NCBI GenBank assembly: GCA_963846435.1
Contig: CAWJVX010000001.1
Span: forward strand, 424,454 to 488,453
Length of the DNA: 64,000 bases
Reading direction: 5' to 3'
Source: an uncultured Gemmatimonadales bacterium
GTDB lineage: Bacteria; Gemmatimonadota; Gemmatimonadetes; Gemmatimonadales; GWC2-71-9
Part shown: positions 7,422 to 55,829 of the stretch, one piece after another
Position numbering within the stretch: the first letter of the stretch is position 1
Layout of the letters: each line of letters opens with the position of its first letter
Position numbers and translations under genes: made by a program
The notes under the pieces: generated by a model
Databases searched by the model: none
What the model was told of the DNA's origin: nothing
Seen by the model: only the letters and a program-made list of their open reading frames with translations

Positions 7422-8183
7422 CTACCTCGCGGACACGGCGTTCAGGTCTCGAAACGATCCGCCGAAGTAGCTGCTGTTCCAGTACGCCTTGTGGGCCACC
7501 TCCGCCGCCACCTGCCGCGCTCCGTCGGGCGTGTCGGCAAAGACAACCACCCGGGTTCCCTTATCCTTCTTGGGGAGCCGCCCATCGTCGTTCGCCGCTT
7601 CAGCCTCGCCCGGCCGAATGTTGACCGCCCCGGGCAGTGTGCCACGGGCAAAATCCGCTGCGGTCCGCGCGTCGACCCACACGGCCGTCTTGTCTCCAGC
7701 CCGGATGTATCGCGCTCCAGCGAGATCGGTCTGCACCGTGTTCCCGAGAGCGCGCCACACCGGCAAGCCGAGCTGGTACCGCTTCACGTTGGTGTACCCC
7801 CGTCCAATCAGCTCCTGAGACAGGCGCTTGGACTTTCCGCAGAACGGCCCATTGCAGTACAGCACCAGCGCCGCCGCCTTGTCCGGGTACGCACGCACGA
7901 CTTGCTCCACTTCCTTTTCGTACAGGTTGATGCTTCCGGGTATGTGCGCGATGGCGTACTCCTGAGCCGAGCGGACATCGAGGACCGGGGTGCTTCTCGC
8001 CTCGAGAAGCTGCTGGAGCTGTTCGGTGCTCAGCTCCGGGGTGACCGGCTGTGGCTCACCGAGCGTGGCCTGCCAGATGGTGGGTCGGGTCTGGGTCGCG
8101 CTCAGCCGGATGGGATTGGGAAGGTAGGTTGCAGCTCCGAGCAGGAGCAGGCATCCTAGCCGGGTCGGCCATGTGGCATGCAT
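7422..8183 (-). CDS. secreted tandem rhodanese-domain sulfurtransferase-like protein
   Basis: Signal peptide followed by two rhodanese-like halves. Active-site loop LYCNGPFCGKS. The ORF is intact with no internal stop. Confidence 0.8.
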   Translation of the reverse strand: MHATWPTRLGCLLLLGAATYLPNPIRLSATQTRPTIWQATLGEPQPVTPELSTEQLQQLLEARSTPVLDVRSAQEYAIAHIPGSINLYEKEVEQVVRAYPDKAAALVLYCNGPFCGKSKRLSQELIGRGYTNVKRYQLGLPVWRALGNTVQTDLAGARYIRAGDKTAVWVDARTAADFARGTLPGAVNIRPGEAEAANDDGRLPKKDKGTRVVVFADTPDGARQVAAEVAHKAYWNSSYFGGSFRDLNAVSAR

Positions 8184-8675: not shown

Positions 8676-9134
8676 TCAGGACTCCCGGGTGGCCGCCCGC
8701 CGGGCCTCGGCCAGGTAGGCCGGCTCCAGCTGCATCAGGCTGGCCATCTTCCGAACCAGATGGGTCTCGTGGTCGCTCAGACGCCCGTCGGCCAGGATGA
8801 CCCCCCACATCACTTCGGCGAGTGCCATCCGCTGAGCCAGAGTGTACTCCGCGGCGACCAGCCGGGTGAATTGAAAATGGTCCAGGGATTGGGCCCGTGC
8901 CGCCTCGGCCAGACGCAGGAGCTCTGCCCCCGACGGCTCGTCGAGACCGAATTGGCGCTGGAGCGTGCTTTCGATGTGCCGTTGCTCTTCGGGGCTGAAT
9001 TCGTTGTCGGCATGGGCCAGCTCCAGAAGCAGCGCACAGGCGGCCAGCTGTACCGGGTCGGGTGCCGGGGCGGCGCTGGGATCCGCTGTTGGAACAAGAC
9101 GCTCGCGAACGAATCGGCGAATGGTCTCGAGCAT
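8676..9134 (-). CDS. TerB-like (tellurite resistance TerB/DjlA N-terminal domain) family protein
   Basis: 152 aa. LLLELAHADNEFSPEEQRHI and WGVILADGRLSDHETHLVRKMA are the repeated TerB-type helices. Confidence 0.6.
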   Translation of the reverse strand: MLETIRRFVRERLVPTADPSAAPAPDPVQLAACALLLELAHADNEFSPEEQRHIESTLQRQFGLDEPSGAELLRLAEAARAQSLDHFQFTRLVAAEYTLAQRMALAEVMWGVILADGRLSDHETHLVRKMASLMQLEPAYLAEARRAATRES

Positions 9135-9552: not shown

Positions 9553-10062
9553 CTATGCGTCTGACGCCAGCAGCCTGATTTCCGGGCCGTCATCGGAGAG
9601 CCGGATCATCCGATCGAAGCTCATGCCGATCTTTTCCAGCACCCTGATCGAGCCGCCGTTGTCCTCATCGGTGATGGCCACGATGCGCCCGAGCCCCAAA
9701 ACGCCTCTCGCGTAACTCATGACCGCGGCGGCCGATTCGACAGCGTATCCCTTGGACCGGTACTGCGGGAGGAAGGCAAACCCGATGTCGACATCGGGCA
9801 AGGTATCGCGCTTCAGCAGGCCGCAGATCCCGATCGGGCTCTTCGAGCCCTTGAGCTCGACCACCCACAGGCCGAAGCCGTGCCGCTCATAGCTGTCCAT
9901 CGGTCCGGTCAGGATATACTGGCGTGCATCCTCCGGCGTCCGCACTCCCTTGTCTCCCACGAATCGAAGGAAAGAAGGGTCGTTGAGCAGCTCGAGGATG
10001 AACTCGGCATCGTCCACCGACATCCGGCGGAGGCTCAGCCGCTCGGTTTGAAGGAGGCTCAC
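9553..10062 (-). CDS. GNAT family N-acetyltransferase (RimJ/RimL-like)
   Basis: LQTERLSLRRMSVDDAEFILELLNDP... and QYRSKGYAVESAAAVMSYA. The GTG start overlaps the upstream stop (GTGA). Confidence 0.8.
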   Translation of the reverse strand: MSLLQTERLSLRRMSVDDAEFILELLNDPSFLRFVGDKGVRTPEDARQYILTGPMDSYERHGFGLWVVELKGSKSPIGICGLLKRDTLPDVDIGFAFLPQYRSKGYAVESAAAVMSYARGVLGLGRIVAITDEDNGGSIRVLEKIGMSFDRMIRLSDDGPEIRLLASDA

Positions 10063-10394
10063 GGGGTCTGCCGGCTCAAGCGCCCTCGCAGGCCGCTACC
10101 CAGTATCGCTCCCAGCAGAGCGAGCACAGTGTAGAAGGCGAGGAACACCATACCGAGCGGCCAGAGCCCGCCACTGGAGGGATCGCGCAGCACGCCTCCC
10201 AGCAGGACCATCACCTGCCCAACGAAGATGCCGGCGACAAACAGTCGCGAATCTCCCGGAAACAGAAGACCTCCCAGCAAGCCGGCACCCAGCAGGGAGG
10301 CCTCGTAGTAGCCGCCCCCAGCGTCCCAGGGCTCCCGTCTTCCGGTGACGAGGGGGGAGAGCAACCAGATCCCAACCCCGATGGCGAGGCCCAT
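10059..10394 (-). CDS. hypothetical membrane protein (3-4 TM, Gly-rich)
   Basis: MGLAIGVGIWLLSPL... An alternative GTG start at 10409 would overlap the MerB-like stop as GTGA. No Cys residues, so it is not MerT/MerE-like. Confidence 0.5.
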   Translation of the reverse strand: MGLAIGVGIWLLSPLVTGRREPWDAGGGYYEASLLGAGLLGGLLFPGDSRLFVAGIFVGQVMVLLGGVLRDPSSGGLWPLGMVFLAFYTVLALLGAILGSGLRGRLSRQTP

Positions 10395-10405: not shown

Positions 10406-11101
10406 TCACGAATCGGGAGAAGCGGCAGGCGGGGGCAGACGCCAGAATGGATCGGTGAGGCCCAGGCTGGTGAACACGGCCTGGGCCTCGGGGGCCGTGC
10501 GGCGGCGCCATGCCGGTTCGAGGCGATCGGCGTACCACGCCTCGGCCAGCGCCCAGGCGGTCGAAAGCGACATGGTCGAGCCGACAGGCCGGCTCCGTTC
10601 CCTGCACCAGCGCGCCACATCCTCCTCCGACCGGAAGAGCAGAATCGTCGATCAGGTAAAGCCGATATCATCCCACCACGAGGCGGCGGGAACTGCGAAG
10701 TGGACCACCCCGGACCCGGCCGAGAGCGAGCGGCCCGTAGTGCGGATCGATGGTGGGTCACCGCAGTCGGGGCAATTGGAAGTGATTTCGGCAGGGGCCT
10801 GGAGCATCGCCGAAATCCCCAGGGCGTCCCAGGCGCAGTTTGCCCACCACTCGCCCCCCGAGGTGCGAACCCGGAAGGCGGTGGGAACTGCCGAGAAGGG
10901 CATGGCCATCCAAAGCCGGCGGCTGGCCGGGTCCAGCACCAGCACGTGGGCGGCGGCGAGCCGTTCGAGACTGGCGGCGACTGCTGCCGGCGCAGTACCG
11001 AGCTGGTCGCTGAGGTCGCGGACCGTGGGAGCGAGGCCGTGACGGACAAAGTGGCGATACACGGACAACCGGACTCGGCCATCGAACTCGGCGGATTCCA
11101 T
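10406..11101 (-). CDS. MerB-like (alkylmercury/organomercurial lyase family) protein with in-frame UGA at codon 150 (candidate selenocysteine; otherwise a pseudogene)
   Basis: Track ORFs 10652..11101 and 10406..10618 are in the same frame, separated only by TGA (10654..10652) plus 11 sense codons. The N-part has a wHTH region and the MerB C-x-x-D motif (WANCAWDAL). After the UGA come STILLFRSEEDVARW, then the C-terminal WALAEAWYADRLEPAWRRRT. A SECIS-like hairpin lies downstream. Confidence 0.6.
10622..10639 (-). promoter_or_regulatory. SECIS-like hairpin (CUCUUCC-GGUC-GGAGGAG)
   Basis: 7-bp stem (6 Watson-Crick pairs plus 1 G-U) with a GGUC tetraloop, starting 12 nt after the in-frame UGA. 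Compare E. coli fdhF, which has an 11-nt spacing and a GGUC loop. Confidence 0.5.
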
Positions 11102-11890: not shown

Positions 11891-11943
11891 TTCGGGTGTG
11901 GTTCACCAACTGGAATAAAGAGGGACGACCGGAGGTGCTTCAG

Positions 11944-12027
11944 TGCCCGGGGCGGGACTCGAACCCGCACGGGGTTTCCCCCAAGGGATTTTAAGTCCCT
12001 TGCGTCTACCGATTCCGCCACCCGGGC
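11944..12027 (-). tRNA. tRNA-Leu (anticodon UAA)
   Basis: Cloverleaf folded by hand: acceptor GCCCGGG/CCCGGGC, anticodon arm AGGGA-CUUAAAA-UCCCU, long variable arm, T-arm GCGGG-UUCGAGU-CCCGC. CCA is not encoded. Confidence 0.9.
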
Positions 12028-12051: not shown

Positions 12052-13239
12052 TTAATCGGGAATCGTCTCGCGCCGCACCCCACGGGATGCCCGGGTGCAC
12101 CAGGTCTTGGGCAACCGCTGGTACCGCTTCTGAAAATCACCGCCGATCTCCGCCACAATCCTCGCTTCCCGCGCTGGCGGCGCCAGCACTACCACCGCCC
12201 CGCCCCAGCCCGCCCCGGTGAGCCTGGCACCGAAGGCGCCGTGCTCAACCGCCGAGGTCACGATGAGATCCGCCTCCGGAATCGTGGATTCGTAGTCGGC
12301 TCGAAGTGACTCGTGCCCCTCGACCAGCAGCCGGCCCAGTGTGGCCAGATCGCCGGCTGCCAGCGCACCGGCTGCGGCCCGGGTGCGCGCCGTCTCGGTG
12401 ACGACGTGCCGGACTCGAGGTACCAGGGGAGGGGGAAGCCGGCGCTCGATCTCGGGCAGGTCACCCGGCAAGAGTTGGGCAAGGTAAGCCAACCCCGGGC
12501 GCCAATCCCGACAGAAGGCCAGCGCTTCCTCGCACTCACGGCGTCGTTGGTTGAGCCCGCCGCCGGTGAGCCGGTGGGACACACCAGTCTCCACGATCCA
12601 GAGCCGGCCAGGAAACGGGACCGGTTGCAGCACGCCGCTCGCGGTCTCGAACAGGAGCGCTGAGCTCCGGTGCGCGTGGGCCGCGATGGTCTGATCCATT
12701 CGACCACAACGAACGCCGACCTGATAATGCTCGGCGCGAAACGCCACCTCCACGAGCGCGGCAGGAGAGAGCCGCTTTCCGGCCAGCAGGCTCAACGCCT
12801 TGGCGGCCGCCACCGCCAGCGCAGCCGACGAGGAAAGGCCCGCCCCGATGGGGACGTCGGTGGCCAACGCCAGCTCTGCGCCGGGGGGCGCGGCACGTAT
12901 CGCCCGAAGCTCTCGGACCACGCCGACGACATAGTCGGTCCAGGCCCGCCGCATGGGCGCGGCGATATCGATCTGGTGAATCTCGCCATCCGAACCCGAA
13001 ACCACTGCCCAGTGTGGGGCTGCACGGGCAGCCACTGCGGTGCGCCGTTCCAGGGCCACCGGCAGGACCGGGCCGCCGTTATAATCGGTGTGCTCCCCGA
13101 TCAGATTCACCCGCCCAGGCGCCGATGCTGCCACCGTCGGTCGGGTAGCAAAGGTCGAGGTAAACAGCGAAGTTGCGAGCCTTGCGGACGACAGGCGAGT
13201 CGGGTTGAACGGCTTCTCTCGGGAGGGACTGTGGGGCAT
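12052..13239 (-). CDS. galK: galactokinase
   Basis: APGRVNLIGEHTDYNGG signature and the GHMP kinase motif PIGAGLSSSAA. Confidence 0.85.
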   Translation of the reverse strand: MPHSPSREKPFNPTRLSSARLATSLFTSTFATRPTVAASAPGRVNLIGEHTDYNGGPVLPVALERRTAVAARAAPHWAVVSGSDGEIHQIDIAAPMRRAWTDYVVGVVRELRAIRAAPPGAELALATDVPIGAGLSSSAALAVAAAKALSLLAGKRLSPAALVEVAFRAEHYQVGVRCGRMDQTIAAHAHRSSALLFETASGVLQPVPFPGRLWIVETGVSHRLTGGGLNQRRRECEEALAFCRDWRPGLAYLAQLLPGDLPEIERRLPPPLVPRVRHVVTETARTRAAAGALAAGDLATLGRLLVEGHESLRADYESTIPEADLIVTSAVEHGAFGARLTGAGWGGAVVVLAPPAREARIVAEIGGDFQKRYQRLPKTWCTRASRGVRRETIPD

Positions 13240-13242
13240 TGC

Positions 13243-14763
13243 GTGCGGCGCCTCGGAGTGATCGCCTGTCTGGTCCTGCCATCGCGGGTGTGGGCGCAGT
13301 TCTCACCGGTGGGGGTGCCGGCCGGCACACTCCGGGTCGAGCTGGACGGGTCACTGGAAACCTTCGACCGGCAGTTCCGCAACGGCACGCGGGAGGGCTA
13401 CGGCGCCGATCTTTCCAGCCCGGCGCTCGGCAGCGACCGGATTCCCCTCCTGATAGACGCCGACATGCGAATCGGCCGGATCGTCGGCAACAGCGGCTAC
13501 CATCTCAATCTAGGTGCGCTGACCACGGATGCGCTGGCCGATGTCGGCAAGGGAGGCTTCGGATTGGGCCTTGGTCTCACCAATCGAATCACGATCTTCG
13601 GACGCATTCCGCTGGTGCGTACCCGGGTGCAGCCGCGCCTGCAGCTCGACCCTGCCGGTACCGATGCCGGCCTCAACCCTGGCGACGCCAGCCAGATCTC
13701 CTTCTTTCAGGATTTCGATGCCGCGCTGGCGACGCTGAGCAGCAAGCTCGCCGCTGGTGACTACAACGGAAATCCGGCGCAGCGAACGCTGGCGGAGGCT
13801 ACGCTGGCCGACGCCACCGCCCTGCGGTCCGACCTGTTCGGACTGTTGGCCGATCCTCTAACGGCGTCGCCGGTCGTGCCCACGGCCGCCAGCGGAGCCG
13901 GTGCCACGGTGCTGACCCGCATACAAGGACTCCAGAACACGCTGACATCCAGTCTGGATGTCCCGGGCTTCGACCTGATTCCGGTACTCCCCCTCGATCC
14001 GTTGGGCGAGGATGGATTGAGACAGGTGCTCGCCGGGCCTCTGGCCCTCCGAGTGGGTGAATCCAGAGTGACCTTCCGAGGCGATGCCGAGGCCGGCGTC
14101 TCCTTTACCCTCGTGGATGGTTGGGATCGTGGCGTCAGGCGGGGTGGGCTCCGGGCTGCGGTGTCGGGACTGGTGCGTTTTCCCACCGGACTCCGCGAGC
14201 AGACCGACCGACCGCTCGATATCGGCACGAGTGGCGGCCACACCGATGTCCAGATCGACCTGGTCACCGATATCGGCGCCGGCGCCTTCGGCGCCCGGCT
14301 GGCTGGCAGCTATGTCCGGCAGTTCCCCCTCGACGTGGTGGCCCGGGTGGGACCACCCAGCCAACCCTTTGTCGGGCCCGACCGGCTCGCGCGGGTGCGG
14401 CGAGATCCCGGCGATATCGTTGCGATCGAGGTTCGCCCGTTCTACCGGTTGGCCCGGACGCTGGCACTCCAGGCCGGCGTGCAGCACTGGACCCGCAAGG
14501 AGGACCAGGTCTCCTATTCGTCCCCCGCAGACGCGCTACCCGGTGTGGACCCGGGCGTGCTCGCTGAAGAGACCGCAGCCAATGCCACGCAACTCTCCGC
14601 CGGCATCACCTACTCCAATCCGGGCCGGCTCAGGCCGGGTGGCAAAGGGTTGCCGGTGGATGCGAGCTGGAGCTATGAGCGGGTGCTGCGCTCGAGCAAG
14701 GGCCGGGTACCGGACACCCATCGGGTCCAAGCGAAGCTCAGGATGTATTTCGGGTTGTGGTAA
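13243..14763 (+). CDS. hypothetical outer-membrane beta-barrel-like protein
   Basis: GTG at 13243 gives a signal peptide (M)RRLGVIACLVLPSRVWAQ, divergent from galK. Alternating beta-strand patterns are present and the C-terminus ...MYFGLW is aromatic, as in outer-membrane proteins. The track ORF upstream of 13243 is antisense to galK. Confidence 0.5.
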   Translation: MRRLGVIACLVLPSRVWAQFSPVGVPAGTLRVELDGSLETFDRQFRNGTREGYGADLSSPALGSDRIPLLIDADMRIGRIVGNSGYHLNLGALTTDALADVGKGGFGLGLGLTNRITIFGRIPLVRTRVQPRLQLDPAGTDAGLNPGDASQISFFQDFDAALATLSSKLAAGDYNGNPAQRTLAEATLADATALRSDLFGLLADPLTASPVVPTAASGAGATVLTRIQGLQNTLTSSLDVPGFDLIPVLPLDPLGEDGLRQVLAGPLALRVGESRVTFRGDAEAGVSFTLVDGWDRGVRRGGLRAAVSGLVRFPTGLREQTDRPLDIGTSGGHTDVQIDLVTDIGAGAFGARLAGSYVRQFPLDVVARVGPPSQPFVGPDRLARVRRDPGDIVAIEVRPFYRLARTLALQAGVQHWTRKEDQVSYSSPADALPGVDPGVLAEETAANATQLSAGITYSNPGRLRPGGKGLPVDASWSYERVLRSSKGRVPDTHRVQAKLRMYFGLW

Positions 14764-20164: not shown

Positions 20165-20399
20165 CGAGATCAGTGACCCTGATGTCGCCGCCCGCCTCCT
20201 CCAGGACGGCCTGTACCTTCACCTCGGCGGCCACCAGCCGTTCTCGCGCGGCTCGGAGTCGGGCCACACCTTCCTCAAACAGCAGCAGCGCCGCGTCCAG
20301 CTCCACATCGTCCGCTTCCAGCTTTCGAACGATCTCCTCCAGCCGGGCGAGCTCGTCGGCCAGGGCGGGAGCCGCGGCGACGGCATCTGATTTCCGCAT
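20157..20399 (-). CDS. xseB: exodeoxyribonuclease VII small subunit
   Basis: ATG at 20399 gives 80 aa with LARLEEIVRKLEADDVELDAALLLFEEGVARLR. The track ORF is N-terminally over-extended. Confidence 0.85.
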   Translation of the reverse strand: MRKSDAVAAAPALADELARLEEIVRKLEADDVELDAALLLFEEGVARLRAARERLVAAEVKVQAVLEEAGGDIRVTDLDA

Positions 20400-20403
20400 G
20401 ACC

Positions 20404-21561
20404 TCACTCCACCCGTGCGCGGACGTCTCCGTCGACCACCCGCAGTCGGAAGCTGGCGTCCTTGATAAAATCGGCCTGCCGCTTGAGCACCCGGCCGGCA
20501 TCGTCCAACGGAACGGCGTAGCCGCGACCGAGCACCCGGAGAGGGCTCAACGCATCGAGCTGGGCACCGAGCCGGTCGGCCAAATTTCGGCGCGAGTCGA
20601 GCACCCCCTCCACGGCCGCATGCAGGCGGTCCTTGCTCCGGGCCAGGCGAGCCGCCGCCAGCCGGGTCCGTCCGGTGAGTCCCGCGGCGAGCCGCAGCGA
20701 CAGGTCGTCAACCAGCCGGAGCACGTCCCGCCGGTCCGCCACCGCCAGCTCCGCCGCGGCGGAGGGAGTGGCCGCACGCAGATCGGCAACCAGGTCGGTC
20801 AGCGAGATATCGATCTCGTGCCCCACGGCCGAGATCGTCGGGACCTTCACGTTGGCGAGGGCCCGGCATACGGCCTCACTGTTGAAGGCGGCAAGGTCCT
20901 CCCGGGCCCCGCCACCCCGGCCCACGATGCAGAGATCGAGTCCCGGAATCCGATTGACCAGTTTGAGCGCGCGAACCAGGTCGTCCACCGCGCCTTCGCC
21001 CTGCACCCGTGCGGAGACCAACAGGATTCGGGCGCAGGGCCATCGCTTGCGGGTGACGGTGACCACGTCCTTGAGCGCCGCACCATCGCGCGAGGTCACC
21101 AGCGCGATGGTGCTGACGTAGGGCGGCACCGAGCGCTTGCGCATCGGATCGAACAGGCCGTCCTGCTGCAGGAGAAGCTTCACCCGCTCCAGCTCCTGCT
21201 GCTTCTGGCCCACCGCACTGGTCGGAAGCATGCGGGCGACGACCAGCTGAAACTCCCCCTTCTCCTCGTACAGCCCCGCCTTGGCCAGCACGAAGACCTC
21301 GGTTCCGTCCGCCGGCGGCTTCCCCGCTCGGGAAGCATTCAGCCGGAACATGCAGCAGCGAACCTGGCTCCGGCGGTCACGCAGGGTGAAGTACCAGTGT
21401 CCACTCGACCACACCTTGCATTGCAGCACCTCGCCGCGCACCCAGATCGGGGGCAGACTGCCGTCAATCAGCCGATTGATCGCAGTGTTGAGCTGACCGA
21501 CGGACCAGACCTGGTCTGAAACAGAGGGGATGTCAAGCGACAGCGATAAGGTCATAGGCAA
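20404..21561 (-). CDS. xseA: exodeoxyribonuclease VII large subunit
   Basis: VWSVGQLNTAINRLIDG..IWVRGEV (OB fold) followed by the catalytic region. Adjacent to xseB. Confidence 0.9.
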   Translation of the reverse strand: MPMTLSLSLDIPSVSDQVWSVGQLNTAINRLIDGSLPPIWVRGEVLQCKVWSSGHWYFTLRDRRSQVRCCMFRLNASRAGKPPADGTEVFVLAKAGLYEEKGEFQLVVARMLPTSAVGQKQQELERVKLLLQQDGLFDPMRKRSVPPYVSTIALVTSRDGAALKDVVTVTRKRWPCARILLVSARVQGEGAVDDLVRALKLVNRIPGLDLCIVGRGGGAREDLAAFNSEAVCRALANVKVPTISAVGHEIDISLTDLVADLRAATPSAAAELAVADRRDVLRLVDDLSLRLAAGLTGRTRLAAARLARSKDRLHAAVEGVLDSRRNLADRLGAQLDALSPLRVLGRGYAVPLDDAGRVLKRQADFIKDASFRLRVVDGDVRARVE

Positions 21562-54319: not shown

Positions 54320-55829
54320 ATGCACGCACCAATCAGCCCTCTCCTCGTCGCGATGGCACTGGCCGGCGTGCTCACCCCGGCGCAGGCCACCGCTCAGGCT
54401 TCCCCCTACATCCCGCTCGACGATCCCCGCCTGCCGTTGCTCGAGCATTTGATCGCTCGGGGTGAGGTGGAGGATCCCTCGCCGATGATTCGCCCATTCC
54501 GCCGGGCCGATGCCGTTCGGGTGCTCGCCGCCGGGGACAGCGCCGCTCCTGCGTCGAGCGCGCCTCATCCGGCGCTTACGGCAAGACCTCGAGGACCCGG
54601 CGGGGAATCGTTGGCGGATCGAGGTGCGGGCCGGCGGCCAGGCGTACTCCCACGCCCGGCGGGAGCTGCTTCACCCGGCCGGCCCGGACGGCGCCCGGCC
54701 GTACGCCGAGCTCCGGGGTGAGGCGATATTCGGCAACCTCCTGCTGGTTACTCGACCCGTCGTGGAGCCTCGGCTCACCGGCGACCCCGACTGGCCTGGC
54801 CGGCAGGATGTCGATATTGCCGGCCGCATGGCCGACGCGTACTTGGGCGCCCAGTTCAAGTACGCCAGCGTCTTCTATGGCCAGATGGACCGGAATTGGG
54901 GCCCGGTAGGCCTGCCAGGCATACCGCTGAGCGGATACGGATACGAACGGCAGGGCCTCGCTCTCGAGATCGGTACCCACAAGCTGGGCCTGTCGGCCAT
55001 GGCGACCGAGCTCCAGGACGAAACCGACAGCCTGGGCCGTACCGTCCATCGGTACTACTTCGTCCATCGGCTGCACGCCGGCCTTTCGCGCCGGCTCGCG
55101 CTGGCGCTGTGGGAGGGAGTGGTTCTGGCCGGGGCCGATCGCAACTTCGAGACCCGCTATCGCAATCCACTGTCGCTCAGCTACCTGGCGAATACCCTCG
55201 GGCTGGGTGACCGGGGCAACGTGCTCCTCGGCGCCGACGTGCGCTGGCAGGCGTTTGGACGAACCACTTTCAACGCGCAGCTCGCCCTGGACGACTTCTG
55301 GTACCGCAACCGGCAGCGTAACCGGGATCGCTGGGCGTTTACGCTTGGCGCGGAAGGACCCCTCCTCGCCACCGCAGCCTGGCACGCCCTGTATACCCAG
55401 GTGTCGAGTTTGGCCCTGCGAGCGTTTGAGCGCGCCGACAACTTCACCGATGCCGGGGTGGGGATCGGGCGGAATTTCAGCGACCAGGATCAGCTTTCGC
55501 TCCGGGTGACGCTTCCGGTTCAGAGCCGTTGGCTGGTGTCGCCCGAGCTGACATTGCTGCGCCAGGGGGAGGGCCGGATCAACGATCCCTACCCTGAACC
55601 CGACGCCGGCGGGGTGCTCTCCACGCCGGCTCTCTTCATCGGAACCGTCGAGCGCACCTACCGCGCTGCGGTCGGGCTGAGCGGGCGGACCGGCCCCCTG
55701 GATCTCGCGGCCAACGCCGGCTTCCATCATGTCGTAAACAGCGGGCACCAGGAGGGTCGGACCGTCAACCGCTTCGAGGGACGGATTCAGGCGACGCTGG
55801 GGTTCTCACGGGGAGGAGTGGTCCAATGA
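54320..55829 (+). pseudogene. Wzi-like capsule-assembly outer-membrane protein, reading frame broken near 54555-54570
   Basis: The signal peptide and N-domain (MHAPISPLLVAMALAGVLTPAQATAQASPYIPLDDPRLPLLEHLIARGEV...) are in the frame of track ORF 54086..54721. The remainder (LIRRLRQDLEDPAGNRWRIEV... to 55829) is in the frame of ORF 54510..55829. Confidence 0.5.

Follow-up and report, generated by a model that had tools for sequence, protein, structure and literature searches.

In a 64,000-nucleotide (64-kb) stretch of the genome of an uncultured Gemmatimonadales bacterium (contig CAWJVX010000001.1, positions 424,454 to 488,453; hereafter the window), a minus-strand gene at 11101..10406 carries an in-frame UGA at codon 150 that is very probably read as selenocysteine (Sec), at a position which, from its sequence, is equivalent to Cys159 of the organomercurial lyase MerB. 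Read in this way, the gene would encode a single 231-residue enzyme of the MerB fold, with Sec as residue 150. Sec decoding, assisted by a hairpin with a GGUC loop like that of fdhF, had been put forward in a first-pass annotation of the window, and is supported by the conservation of the TGA, of the reading frame and of the hairpin in 78 of 80 loci.

The reading frame continues past an internal TGA

On the minus strand, an ATG-started open reading frame (ORF) of 149 codons occupies 11101..10655 and ends ...WWDDIGFT (...VPAASWWDDIGFT) at the TGA at 10654..10652. Beyond this TGA the frame stays open for 81 further codons (STILLFRSEEDVARW...; STILLFRSEEDVARWCRERS...) up to a second TGA at 10408..10406, and the joined product measures 231 amino acids (aa; 149 + Sec + 81), confirming the arrangement described in the first-pass annotation. 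The separately listed ORF at 10406..10618, which had been placed in frame 12 codons downstream, was found there, its GTG being the 12th codon past the internal TGA. Because this ORF is in frame, and because conservation begins right past the TGA and before the GTG, it represents, on the evidence of its sequence, the C-terminal part of the selenoprotein rather than a separate gene. The spacing of 61 residues from the catalytic-type Cys to the UGA was also reproduced, with Cys89 as that residue.

The TGA is conserved at the same column in eleven phyla

A protein search returned 1278 homologues, of which the best 120 were inspected. More than 100 of these 120, at 58–91% identity, are about 149 aa long and each covers only 62–65% of the query, showing that they share the same end point. 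Some of these records, 149–154 aa in length and derived from Gemmatimonadales metagenome-assembled genomes (MAGs), are named ‘organomercurial lyase’ at NCBI, and the 149-aa product of the window is 79–91% identical to L001 and P0001.

The DNA of the 80 best relatives, one genome per species, was then aligned to the query by tblastn, revealing a TGA exactly at the column of query residue 150 in 78 of the 80 loci. With phyla taken from the record titles, these TGA loci fall into Gemmatimonadota (39), Actinomycetota (11), Acidobacteriota (10), Chloroflexota (7), Planctomycetota and Marinimicrobia (3 each), and Myxococcota, Desulfobacterota, Calditrichota, NC10 and Eremiobacterota (1 each), 11 phyla overall. 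Protein homology in the TGA loci extends past the TGA to approximately aa 222 at 42–79% identity, and all 78 loci have 71–86 open codons past the TGA. Among the ten closest relatives, differences at codon positions 1, 2 and 3 number 127, 88 and 316 downstream of the TGA, compared with 78, 66 and 303 upstream. As the downstream differences are mostly at third positions, much like those upstream, the downstream part is translated and under purifying selection as a protein.

The two exceptions among the 80 loci are L054, which has TCG (Ser) at this column, and L019, which has an internal deletion. Full-length homologues with Cys at the Sec column were also found (P0080, P0088, P0109 and P0118), and the Cys codon is TGC in L081, L083 and L086. 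The first-pass annotation had proposed inspecting homologues for Cys or Sec in the aligned column and asking whether orthologous loci hold unrelated sequence after the stop. The homologues without TGA mostly have Cys at that column, and the orthologous loci carry related sequence in an open frame past the TGA.

A hairpin downstream of the UGA has co-evolved with it

The hairpin CUCUUCC-GGUC-GGAGGAG, called in the first-pass annotation 12 nt past the UGA, was recovered at 10639..10622, with its 5' arm at 10639..10633, its loop at 10632..10629 and its 3' arm at 10628..10622. In isolation it folds with –8.8 kcal/mol and it is present in the centroid fold; the stem has 7 bp, and the four-base apical loop, starting with GG, lies 19 nt past the UGA. 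This geometry fits the model of bacterial selenocysteine insertion sequence (SECIS) elements and resembles the E. coli fdhF element, likewise a hairpin within the coding sequence, with 11–12 nt between UGA and hairpin in the two cases and a GGUC apical loop in both. The stem sequence differs from that of fdhF, and SelB binding by the candidate element described here is predicted from sequence.

The alignment of 63 nt around the TGA is gapless across the 78 sequences, fixing the start of the hairpin at 12 nt past the TGA in all of them. Over the 7-bp stem, 94.3% of sequence-by-pair cells are standard pairs, compared with 48–65% when the 3' arm is slid by 1–3 columns, and 4 of the 7 pairs have changed on both sides; the observed pairing, covariation and pair-type counts were attained by 0 of 500 shuffles. 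The closing C-G pair, for example, is replaced by G-C in L055, L068 and L069 and by A-U in L040, compensatory changes that alter an Arg codon or residue together with a Ser codon.

The loop and inner stem encode F-R-S-E, and the strongest signal comes from synonymous sites in these codons. Arg is spelled CGG in 74 of 75 cases, as against 30% of Arg codons elsewhere in the TGA genes, and Ser is spelled TCG in 70 of 73, as against 35% elsewhere, while Phe is TTC in 78 of 78. In the Cys homologues (TGC) the hairpin has decayed, even in P0088, which has kept F-R-S-E but spells it TTC CGC TCC GAG. The hairpin is also absent from the Ser homologue L054.

These comparisons bear on two alternatives that had been named alongside Sec decoding. 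The first is that the gene is a pseudogene, in which a nonsense mutation (TGC or TGT to TGA) inactivated a Cys-containing MerB-like gene. Viewed alone, an in-frame TGA that differs from a Cys codon by one base is compatible with this idea, as are relatives that look damaged (L019/P0016 with its internal deletion, and L013 with a deletion of 1 nt past the TGA). However, 78 of 80 species-level genomes, spread over 11 phyla, have the TGA at this column, co-conserved with the hairpin, and the frame downstream is intact and under purifying selection; neither independent identical nonsense mutations nor the persistence of a pseudogene down to 42% identity is credible, which makes a pseudogene exceedingly improbable. 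The second alternative, a sequencing or assembly error at 10652..10654 with TGC or TGT as the true codon, has nothing specific in its favour and a negligible probability as well, given that the same TGA recurs in assemblies made independently by many projects and on many sequencing platforms, and that the hairpin, which is seen with TGA and not with TGC forms, is intact here. Since the TGA, the downstream frame and the hairpin are conserved across 11 phyla, and since the Cys forms lack the hairpin, we regard both alternatives as excluded.

Several relatives depart from the common pattern. Full-length homologues unexpectedly have Trp (P0101), Arg (P0111) or Gly (P0116) at the Sec column, with codons TGG in L082:255-950 (P0101), AGG in L085:1082-1759 (P0111) and GGA in L084:68-775 (P0116). 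All three loci retain a perfect CTCTTCC-GGTC-GGARGAR hairpin despite having no TGA, TGG and GGA are one base away from TGA, and L082, L084 and L085 are all single short metagenome contigs. These forms may reflect a recent loss of Sec by substitution, which would inactivate the catalytic site, or else errors in sequencing. Substitution of Cys159 in canonical MerB abolishes activity, and for this reason the Ser-bearing copy without the hairpin (L054:10001-10654, from an Ignavibacteriales MAG) may have another role. In the Gemmatimonadales, an internal deletion or frameshift removes the Sec region of L019:10001-10582 (= P0016), and the 1-nt deletion in L013:2239-2918 lies directly past the TGA; both loci may be pseudogenes or contain assembly indels.

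The UGA falls on a catalytic residue of the MerB fold

The joined 231-aa sequence was searched with Cys placed at the stop. The Pfam MerB family PF03243 matches aa 69–190 with an E-value of 6.1e-35, spanning the TGA and almost the entire profile (Table 1), and its score of 120.4 bits, compared with a gathering cut-off of 27, places the protein in this family. The best matches among PDB sequences in HMMER searches are MerB2 (5c17, E 6.9e-12; alignment beginning at aa 18) and MerB (3f2g). In these alignments the UGA column falls on the Cys of MerB2 ‘GTCKQIHYF’ and on Cys159 of MerB ‘FCSHVHFF’, the Cys of the 3f2g segment being Cys159 because the 3f2g chain is a C160S mutant. Also, N-C-A-W-D aligns with W-C-A-L-D of MerB in the alignments to 3f2g and 5c17, equating Cys89 with Cys96 and Asp92 with Asp99. 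The by-eye alignment of the UGA column to MerB in the first-pass annotation was therefore right, and its assignment of a C-x-x-D signature to the catalytic Cys and Asp of MerB was borne out.

An AlphaFold2 (AF2) model computed from an alignment of 14 sequences reached a predicted local distance difference test (pLDDT) score of 90.6 and a predicted template modelling (pTM) score of 0.87. At E ≤ 0.001, Foldseek matched the model to 11 chains in the PDB, every one of them MerB or MerB2 (E 2e-9 to 4e-6, template modelling (TM) score 0.5–0.7, sequence identity 17–22%). The next matches are only winged-helix regulators covering the N-terminal helices, and weak Pfam matches to LexA_DNA_bind and HTH were likewise obtained in the N-terminal region. 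Judged by sequence and model together, the protein is a MerB-fold protein with a full predicted catalytic triad, the third residue of which is encoded by UGA.

Conservation of single residues was counted among the 78 TGA-bearing members. Asp92, His134, Sec150 and F156 are kept in 78 of 78, Cys89 and Thr149 in 77 and Thr152 in 76; the motif around Sec is T-U-[A/S]-T. A second pair of cysteines is less strictly kept (Cys110 in 71 of 78, Cys113 in 67), and the aligned stretch of MerB and MerB2 has a single Cys; this C-P-D-C pair may serve in metal hand-off or as a redox pair, a role suggested by its sequence. Past the Pfam domain, the C-terminal ~35 residues show conservation as well (W198, F219), and they are confidently modelled. 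The curated NCBIfam models for true organomercurial lyase MerB (NF009710 / NF033555; EC 4.99.1.2) do not reach their cut-offs on this protein, scoring 46.7 against 193 and 33.1 against 200 bits.

Sec decoding compared with other uses of the UGA

By analogy with the bacterial Sec pathway, the hairpin, with its 7-bp stem and GGUC loop, would bind SelB-GTP-Sec-tRNA(Sec), and the ribosome would thereby receive Sec at the UGA and carry on for another 81 codons. The TGA might instead be a conserved true stop that yields a 149-aa protein, with the C-terminal part made separately (for example from the GTG at 10618), or with the hairpin used otherwise, in regulated termination, in read-through without Sec or in mRNA stability. 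Gene callers and NCBI do annotate a product of 149–154 aa, a GTG follows 12 codons downstream, and Sec machinery in the source genome is presumed. Nevertheless, conservation is unbroken from the TGA through the 11 codons ahead of the GTG, including Thr152 and F156, and a split at this point would cut the MerB domain exactly at a catalytic residue, a column at which full-length homologues carry Cys. The distance and the GG start of the apical loop, moreover, fit the bacterial SECIS model and fdhF. We therefore judge a true stop to be very unlikely, and continue with Sec decoding as the preferred reading.

A number of observations weigh against this reading, or against the function that it implies. 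The 64-kb window and the 80 fetched loci were searched for selA, selB, selD and tRNA-Sec, and none came to light: ARAGORN detected no tRNA-Sec in either, tblastn with E. coli SelA, SelB and SelD gave no match in the window and 1.2 Mb of loci, a search that is uninformative genome-wide, and Pfam searches of 20 large ORFs of the window returned only housekeeping genes and none of the Sec machinery. Sec use in Gemmatimonadota is also not reported in the literature searched. The hairpin that the first-pass annotation expected to find by folding is present, yet the 71-nt stretch 10590..10660 alone folds no better than shuffled sequence (z = +1.05), so that it is the comparative data which show the hairpin to be non-random. 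No Rfam family was found at the site, in the whole window at gathering thresholds or in a permissive search of 10540..10720, which says little as bacterial SECIS elements are short and poorly covered. E. coli SelB needs a bulged U, which most members here do not have, although L062 may have one. As to function, mercury-lyase substrate and activity are a prediction from likeness to MerB, no mer gene is a conserved neighbour within ±6 kb in the 78 loci, and the Hg-Se bond is very strong and could hinder product release, calling for caution on mercury as the physiological metal.

A changed genetic code, in which UGA would mean Trp or Gly, was considered as well and rejected. It is implausible for as many as 11 ordinary phyla, and TGA also serves as the final stop codon in 43 of the 78 genes. 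A scan of the window for other genes with in-frame TGA, based on GC content at third codon positions (GC3), returned antisense shadow ORFs only, and at its strict setting it missed the present gene too.

Relation to SaoL and canonical MerB

A MerB-type selenoprotein has been predicted before. In 2022, Haft & Gwadz (bioRxiv 10.1101/2022.07.06.499078) predicted SaoL and gave it its name, ‘selenocysteine-assisted organometallic lyase’ (NCBIfam NF040728). In database entries it is cut off at a C-U dipeptide whose Sec aligns to Cys159 of MerB, it is encoded in a nine-gene SAO locus with an ATP-binding cassette (ABC) transporter, and its hosts are exclusively anaerobic bacteria (10.1101/2022.07.06.499078). 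The protein of the window resembles SaoL in that both belong to PF03243, both have database entries cut at an in-frame UGA, both place Sec at Cys159 and keep the equivalents of Cys96 and Asp99, and both extend for ~50–80 residues past Sec.

In contrast to SaoL, our protein scores 39 bits with NF040728, compared with a cut-off of 140, and aligns to it over aa 30–121 only. Its members have T-U-[A/S]-T in place of C-U, with Thr ahead of Sec in 77 of 78, and its gene stands alone instead of in a nine-gene locus. The hosts are chiefly soil and water MAGs of the Gemmatimonadota, Acidobacteriota, Actinomycetota and Chloroflexota, and the C-x-D-C pair and the conserved C-terminal tail (W198, F219) belong to this clade. 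Given the score below cut-off, the different motif, the missing SAO neighbourhood and the different hosts, this protein is not SaoL.

With MerB (plasmid R831b; PDB 3F0O, 3F0P, 3F2F) and MerB2 (5C17) the protein shares the fold and the C-x-x-D motif, and the third ligand follows the Cys by 61 residues, compared with 63 in MerB. It differs from MerB in having Sec as the predicted third ligand in place of Cys159, in its low sequence identity (17–22%), in lying outside a mer operon, in falling below the NCBIfam MerB cut-offs, and in its extra conserved C-terminal extension of ~35 residues and C-x-D-C motif.

The remark in the first-pass annotation that no Sec-containing MerB has been characterised holds as far as none has been tested biochemically, but the idea of one is not new, SaoL having been predicted in 2022. 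Reviews of 2022 and 2026 list SaoL as the sole MerB-type selenoprotein, and MerB is absent from the papers on BSepDB and deep-Sep. The existence of SaoL means that a claim to the first Sec-containing MerB is not supported; the present clade, within the literature searched, appears to be undescribed as a selenoprotein.

Predicted chemistry and substrate

By analogy with MerB chemistry, Sec150, Cys89 and Asp92 would take the places of the MerB triad Cys159, Cys96 and Asp99. Cys89 and Sec150 would hold an organometal between them, methylmercury or another organomercurial being the most plausible, and Asp92 would protonate the leaving carbon, breaking the carbon-metal bond. More speculatively, the C-x-D-C pair might take over the metal afterwards.

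Sec might, on the other hand, be inserted into a protein that is no organomercurial lyase at all, one that acts on another organometal or organometalloid, or that binds, senses or traffics metal or selenium. None of merA, merR, merT and merP is conserved next to this stand-alone gene, and the protein scores far under the cut-offs of NCBIfam for true MerB. TerB and rhodanese genes are located nearby in the window, though these are not conserved neighbours. Haft and Gwadz express a like reservation about SaoL, and point out that MerB is able to bind other metals (10.1101/2022.07.06.499078). Set against this, the triad of Cys, Asp and Sec in place of Cys is near-invariant in the family, and the fold matches only MerB and MerB2. 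The Asp, which is the proton donor for protonolysis of the C-Hg bond, is kept here, whereas it is replaced by Ser in the natural variant MerB2. We lean away from a non-lyase function, while taking it to be a substantial possibility. An organomercurial may be the substrate: judged by analogy, the triad speaks for it, and the lack of mer context, the low MerB scores and the strength of the Hg-Se bond advise caution.

Implications of a second MerB-type selenoprotein

Sec decoding at this site would make the clade a second MerB-type selenoprotein beside SaoL, one that is new, widespread and mis-annotated. Public entries in the hundreds, among them the NCBI ‘organomercurial lyase’ records of 149–154 aa from Gemmatimonadales, would then end at the catalytic residue, and no NCBIfam model reaches its cut-off for the clade. 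It would also imply Sec decoding in many soil phyla for which there are no reports in the literature searched. As the natural Sec/Cys pairs within the clade occur at a metal-ligand and not a redox position, they would offer a clean system for examining the contribution of Sec to carbon-metal cleavage. If the enzyme demethylates methylmercury, estimates of demethylation in soils and sediments that are based on merB would be incomplete.

A bolder proposal, which we advance tentatively and think rather unlikely to hold in full, is that these proteins form an unrecognised and very widespread family of Sec-dependent methylmercury or organometal lyases that operates outside mer operons in soil and marine Gemmatimonadota, Acidobacteriota, Actinomycetota, Chloroflexota and other phyla. 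The change from Cys159 to Sec, along with the C-x-D-C pair, would in that case give high-affinity demethylation at ambient trace concentrations, providing a way in which methylmercury is broken down in the environment and also explaining why these phyla use Sec. Both would have escaped current surveys of merB and inventories of selenoproteomes, since annotation reduces the gene to a fragment of 149 aa.

Gene features and genomic neighbourhood

The features of the gene are collected in Table 1.

Table 1 Features of the predicted selenoprotein gene, in positions of the window
Feature	Position	Strand	Remarks
Full predicted selenoprotein gene, MerB family	10406..11101	minus	231 codons + stop TGA 10408..10406; frame open across the internal TGA
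In-frame UGA, predicted Sec150	10652..10654	minus	Column equivalent to MerB Cys159; TGA in 78/80 loci
MerB (alkylmercury lyase) Pfam domain, aa 69–190	10532..10897	minus	Profile positions 1–125 of 126
C-A-W-D codons	10826..10837	minus	Cys89 10837..10835, Asp92 10828..10826 = MerB Cys96, Asp99
C-P-D-C motif, Cys110 + Cys113	10763..10774	minus	Second Cys pair typical of the clade
N-terminal three-helix winged-helix-like region, aa 3–50	10952..11095	minus	AF2 helices H3-21, H27-34, H38-50; part of the MerB fold
70-aa ‘ORF’ with GTG start	10406..10618	minus	C-terminal part of the predicted selenoprotein, no separate gene
SECIS-type hairpin (candidate)	10622..10639	minus	7-bp stem CUCUUCC/GGAGGAG, loop GGUC, 12 nt past UGA

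The window is a housekeeping chromosomal region of 66% GC, containing dxs, recJ, dnaG, rny (RNase Y), hrcA, dnaJ, pheT, mutS2, obg and dprA. On one side the gene is flanked by a small membrane ORF, followed by GNAT acetyltransferase, YCII, TerB and rhodanese genes, and on the other side by an ORF without an assigned family, a tRNA-Leu and galactokinase (galK). All ORFs within ±6 kb were clustered over the 78 loci, where neighbours elsewhere were not all annotated individually. No neighbour family was common to more than 15 of the 78 loci, and those that were common were confined to close relatives; for this reason the gene is a stand-alone chromosomal gene, outside any mer operon and outside the SAO locus.

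A 111-aa hydrophobic ORF (10059-10394, minus strand; MGLAIGVGIWLL...), without a Pfam match, begins ~10 nt past the stop of the selenoprotein gene and may be co-transcribed with it. Farther downstream on the same strand, at a distance of 1.5–3 kb, lie a protein with a TerB tellurite-resistance domain (8676..9134) and a double-rhodanese-like protein (7422..8183). The TerB and rhodanese families are tied to the chemistry of sulfur, selenium or tellurium. As only about nine close relatives share the TerB gene, any functional link to the selenoprotein is tentative. Upstream, the tRNA-Leu(TAA) at 11943-12027 (minus strand) is separated from the selenoprotein gene by ~840 nt and lies ahead of galactokinase (12052..13239).

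Additionally, three long plus-strand ORFs in the window, at 12670-14763, 20173-21519 and 54510-55829 (697, 448 and 439 aa), match nothing in Pfam at E ≤ 1e-5. The first overlaps the start of galK, and the other two each overlap an ORF of 385–390 aa on the opposite strand; all three may be partly or wholly non-coding shadow ORFs.

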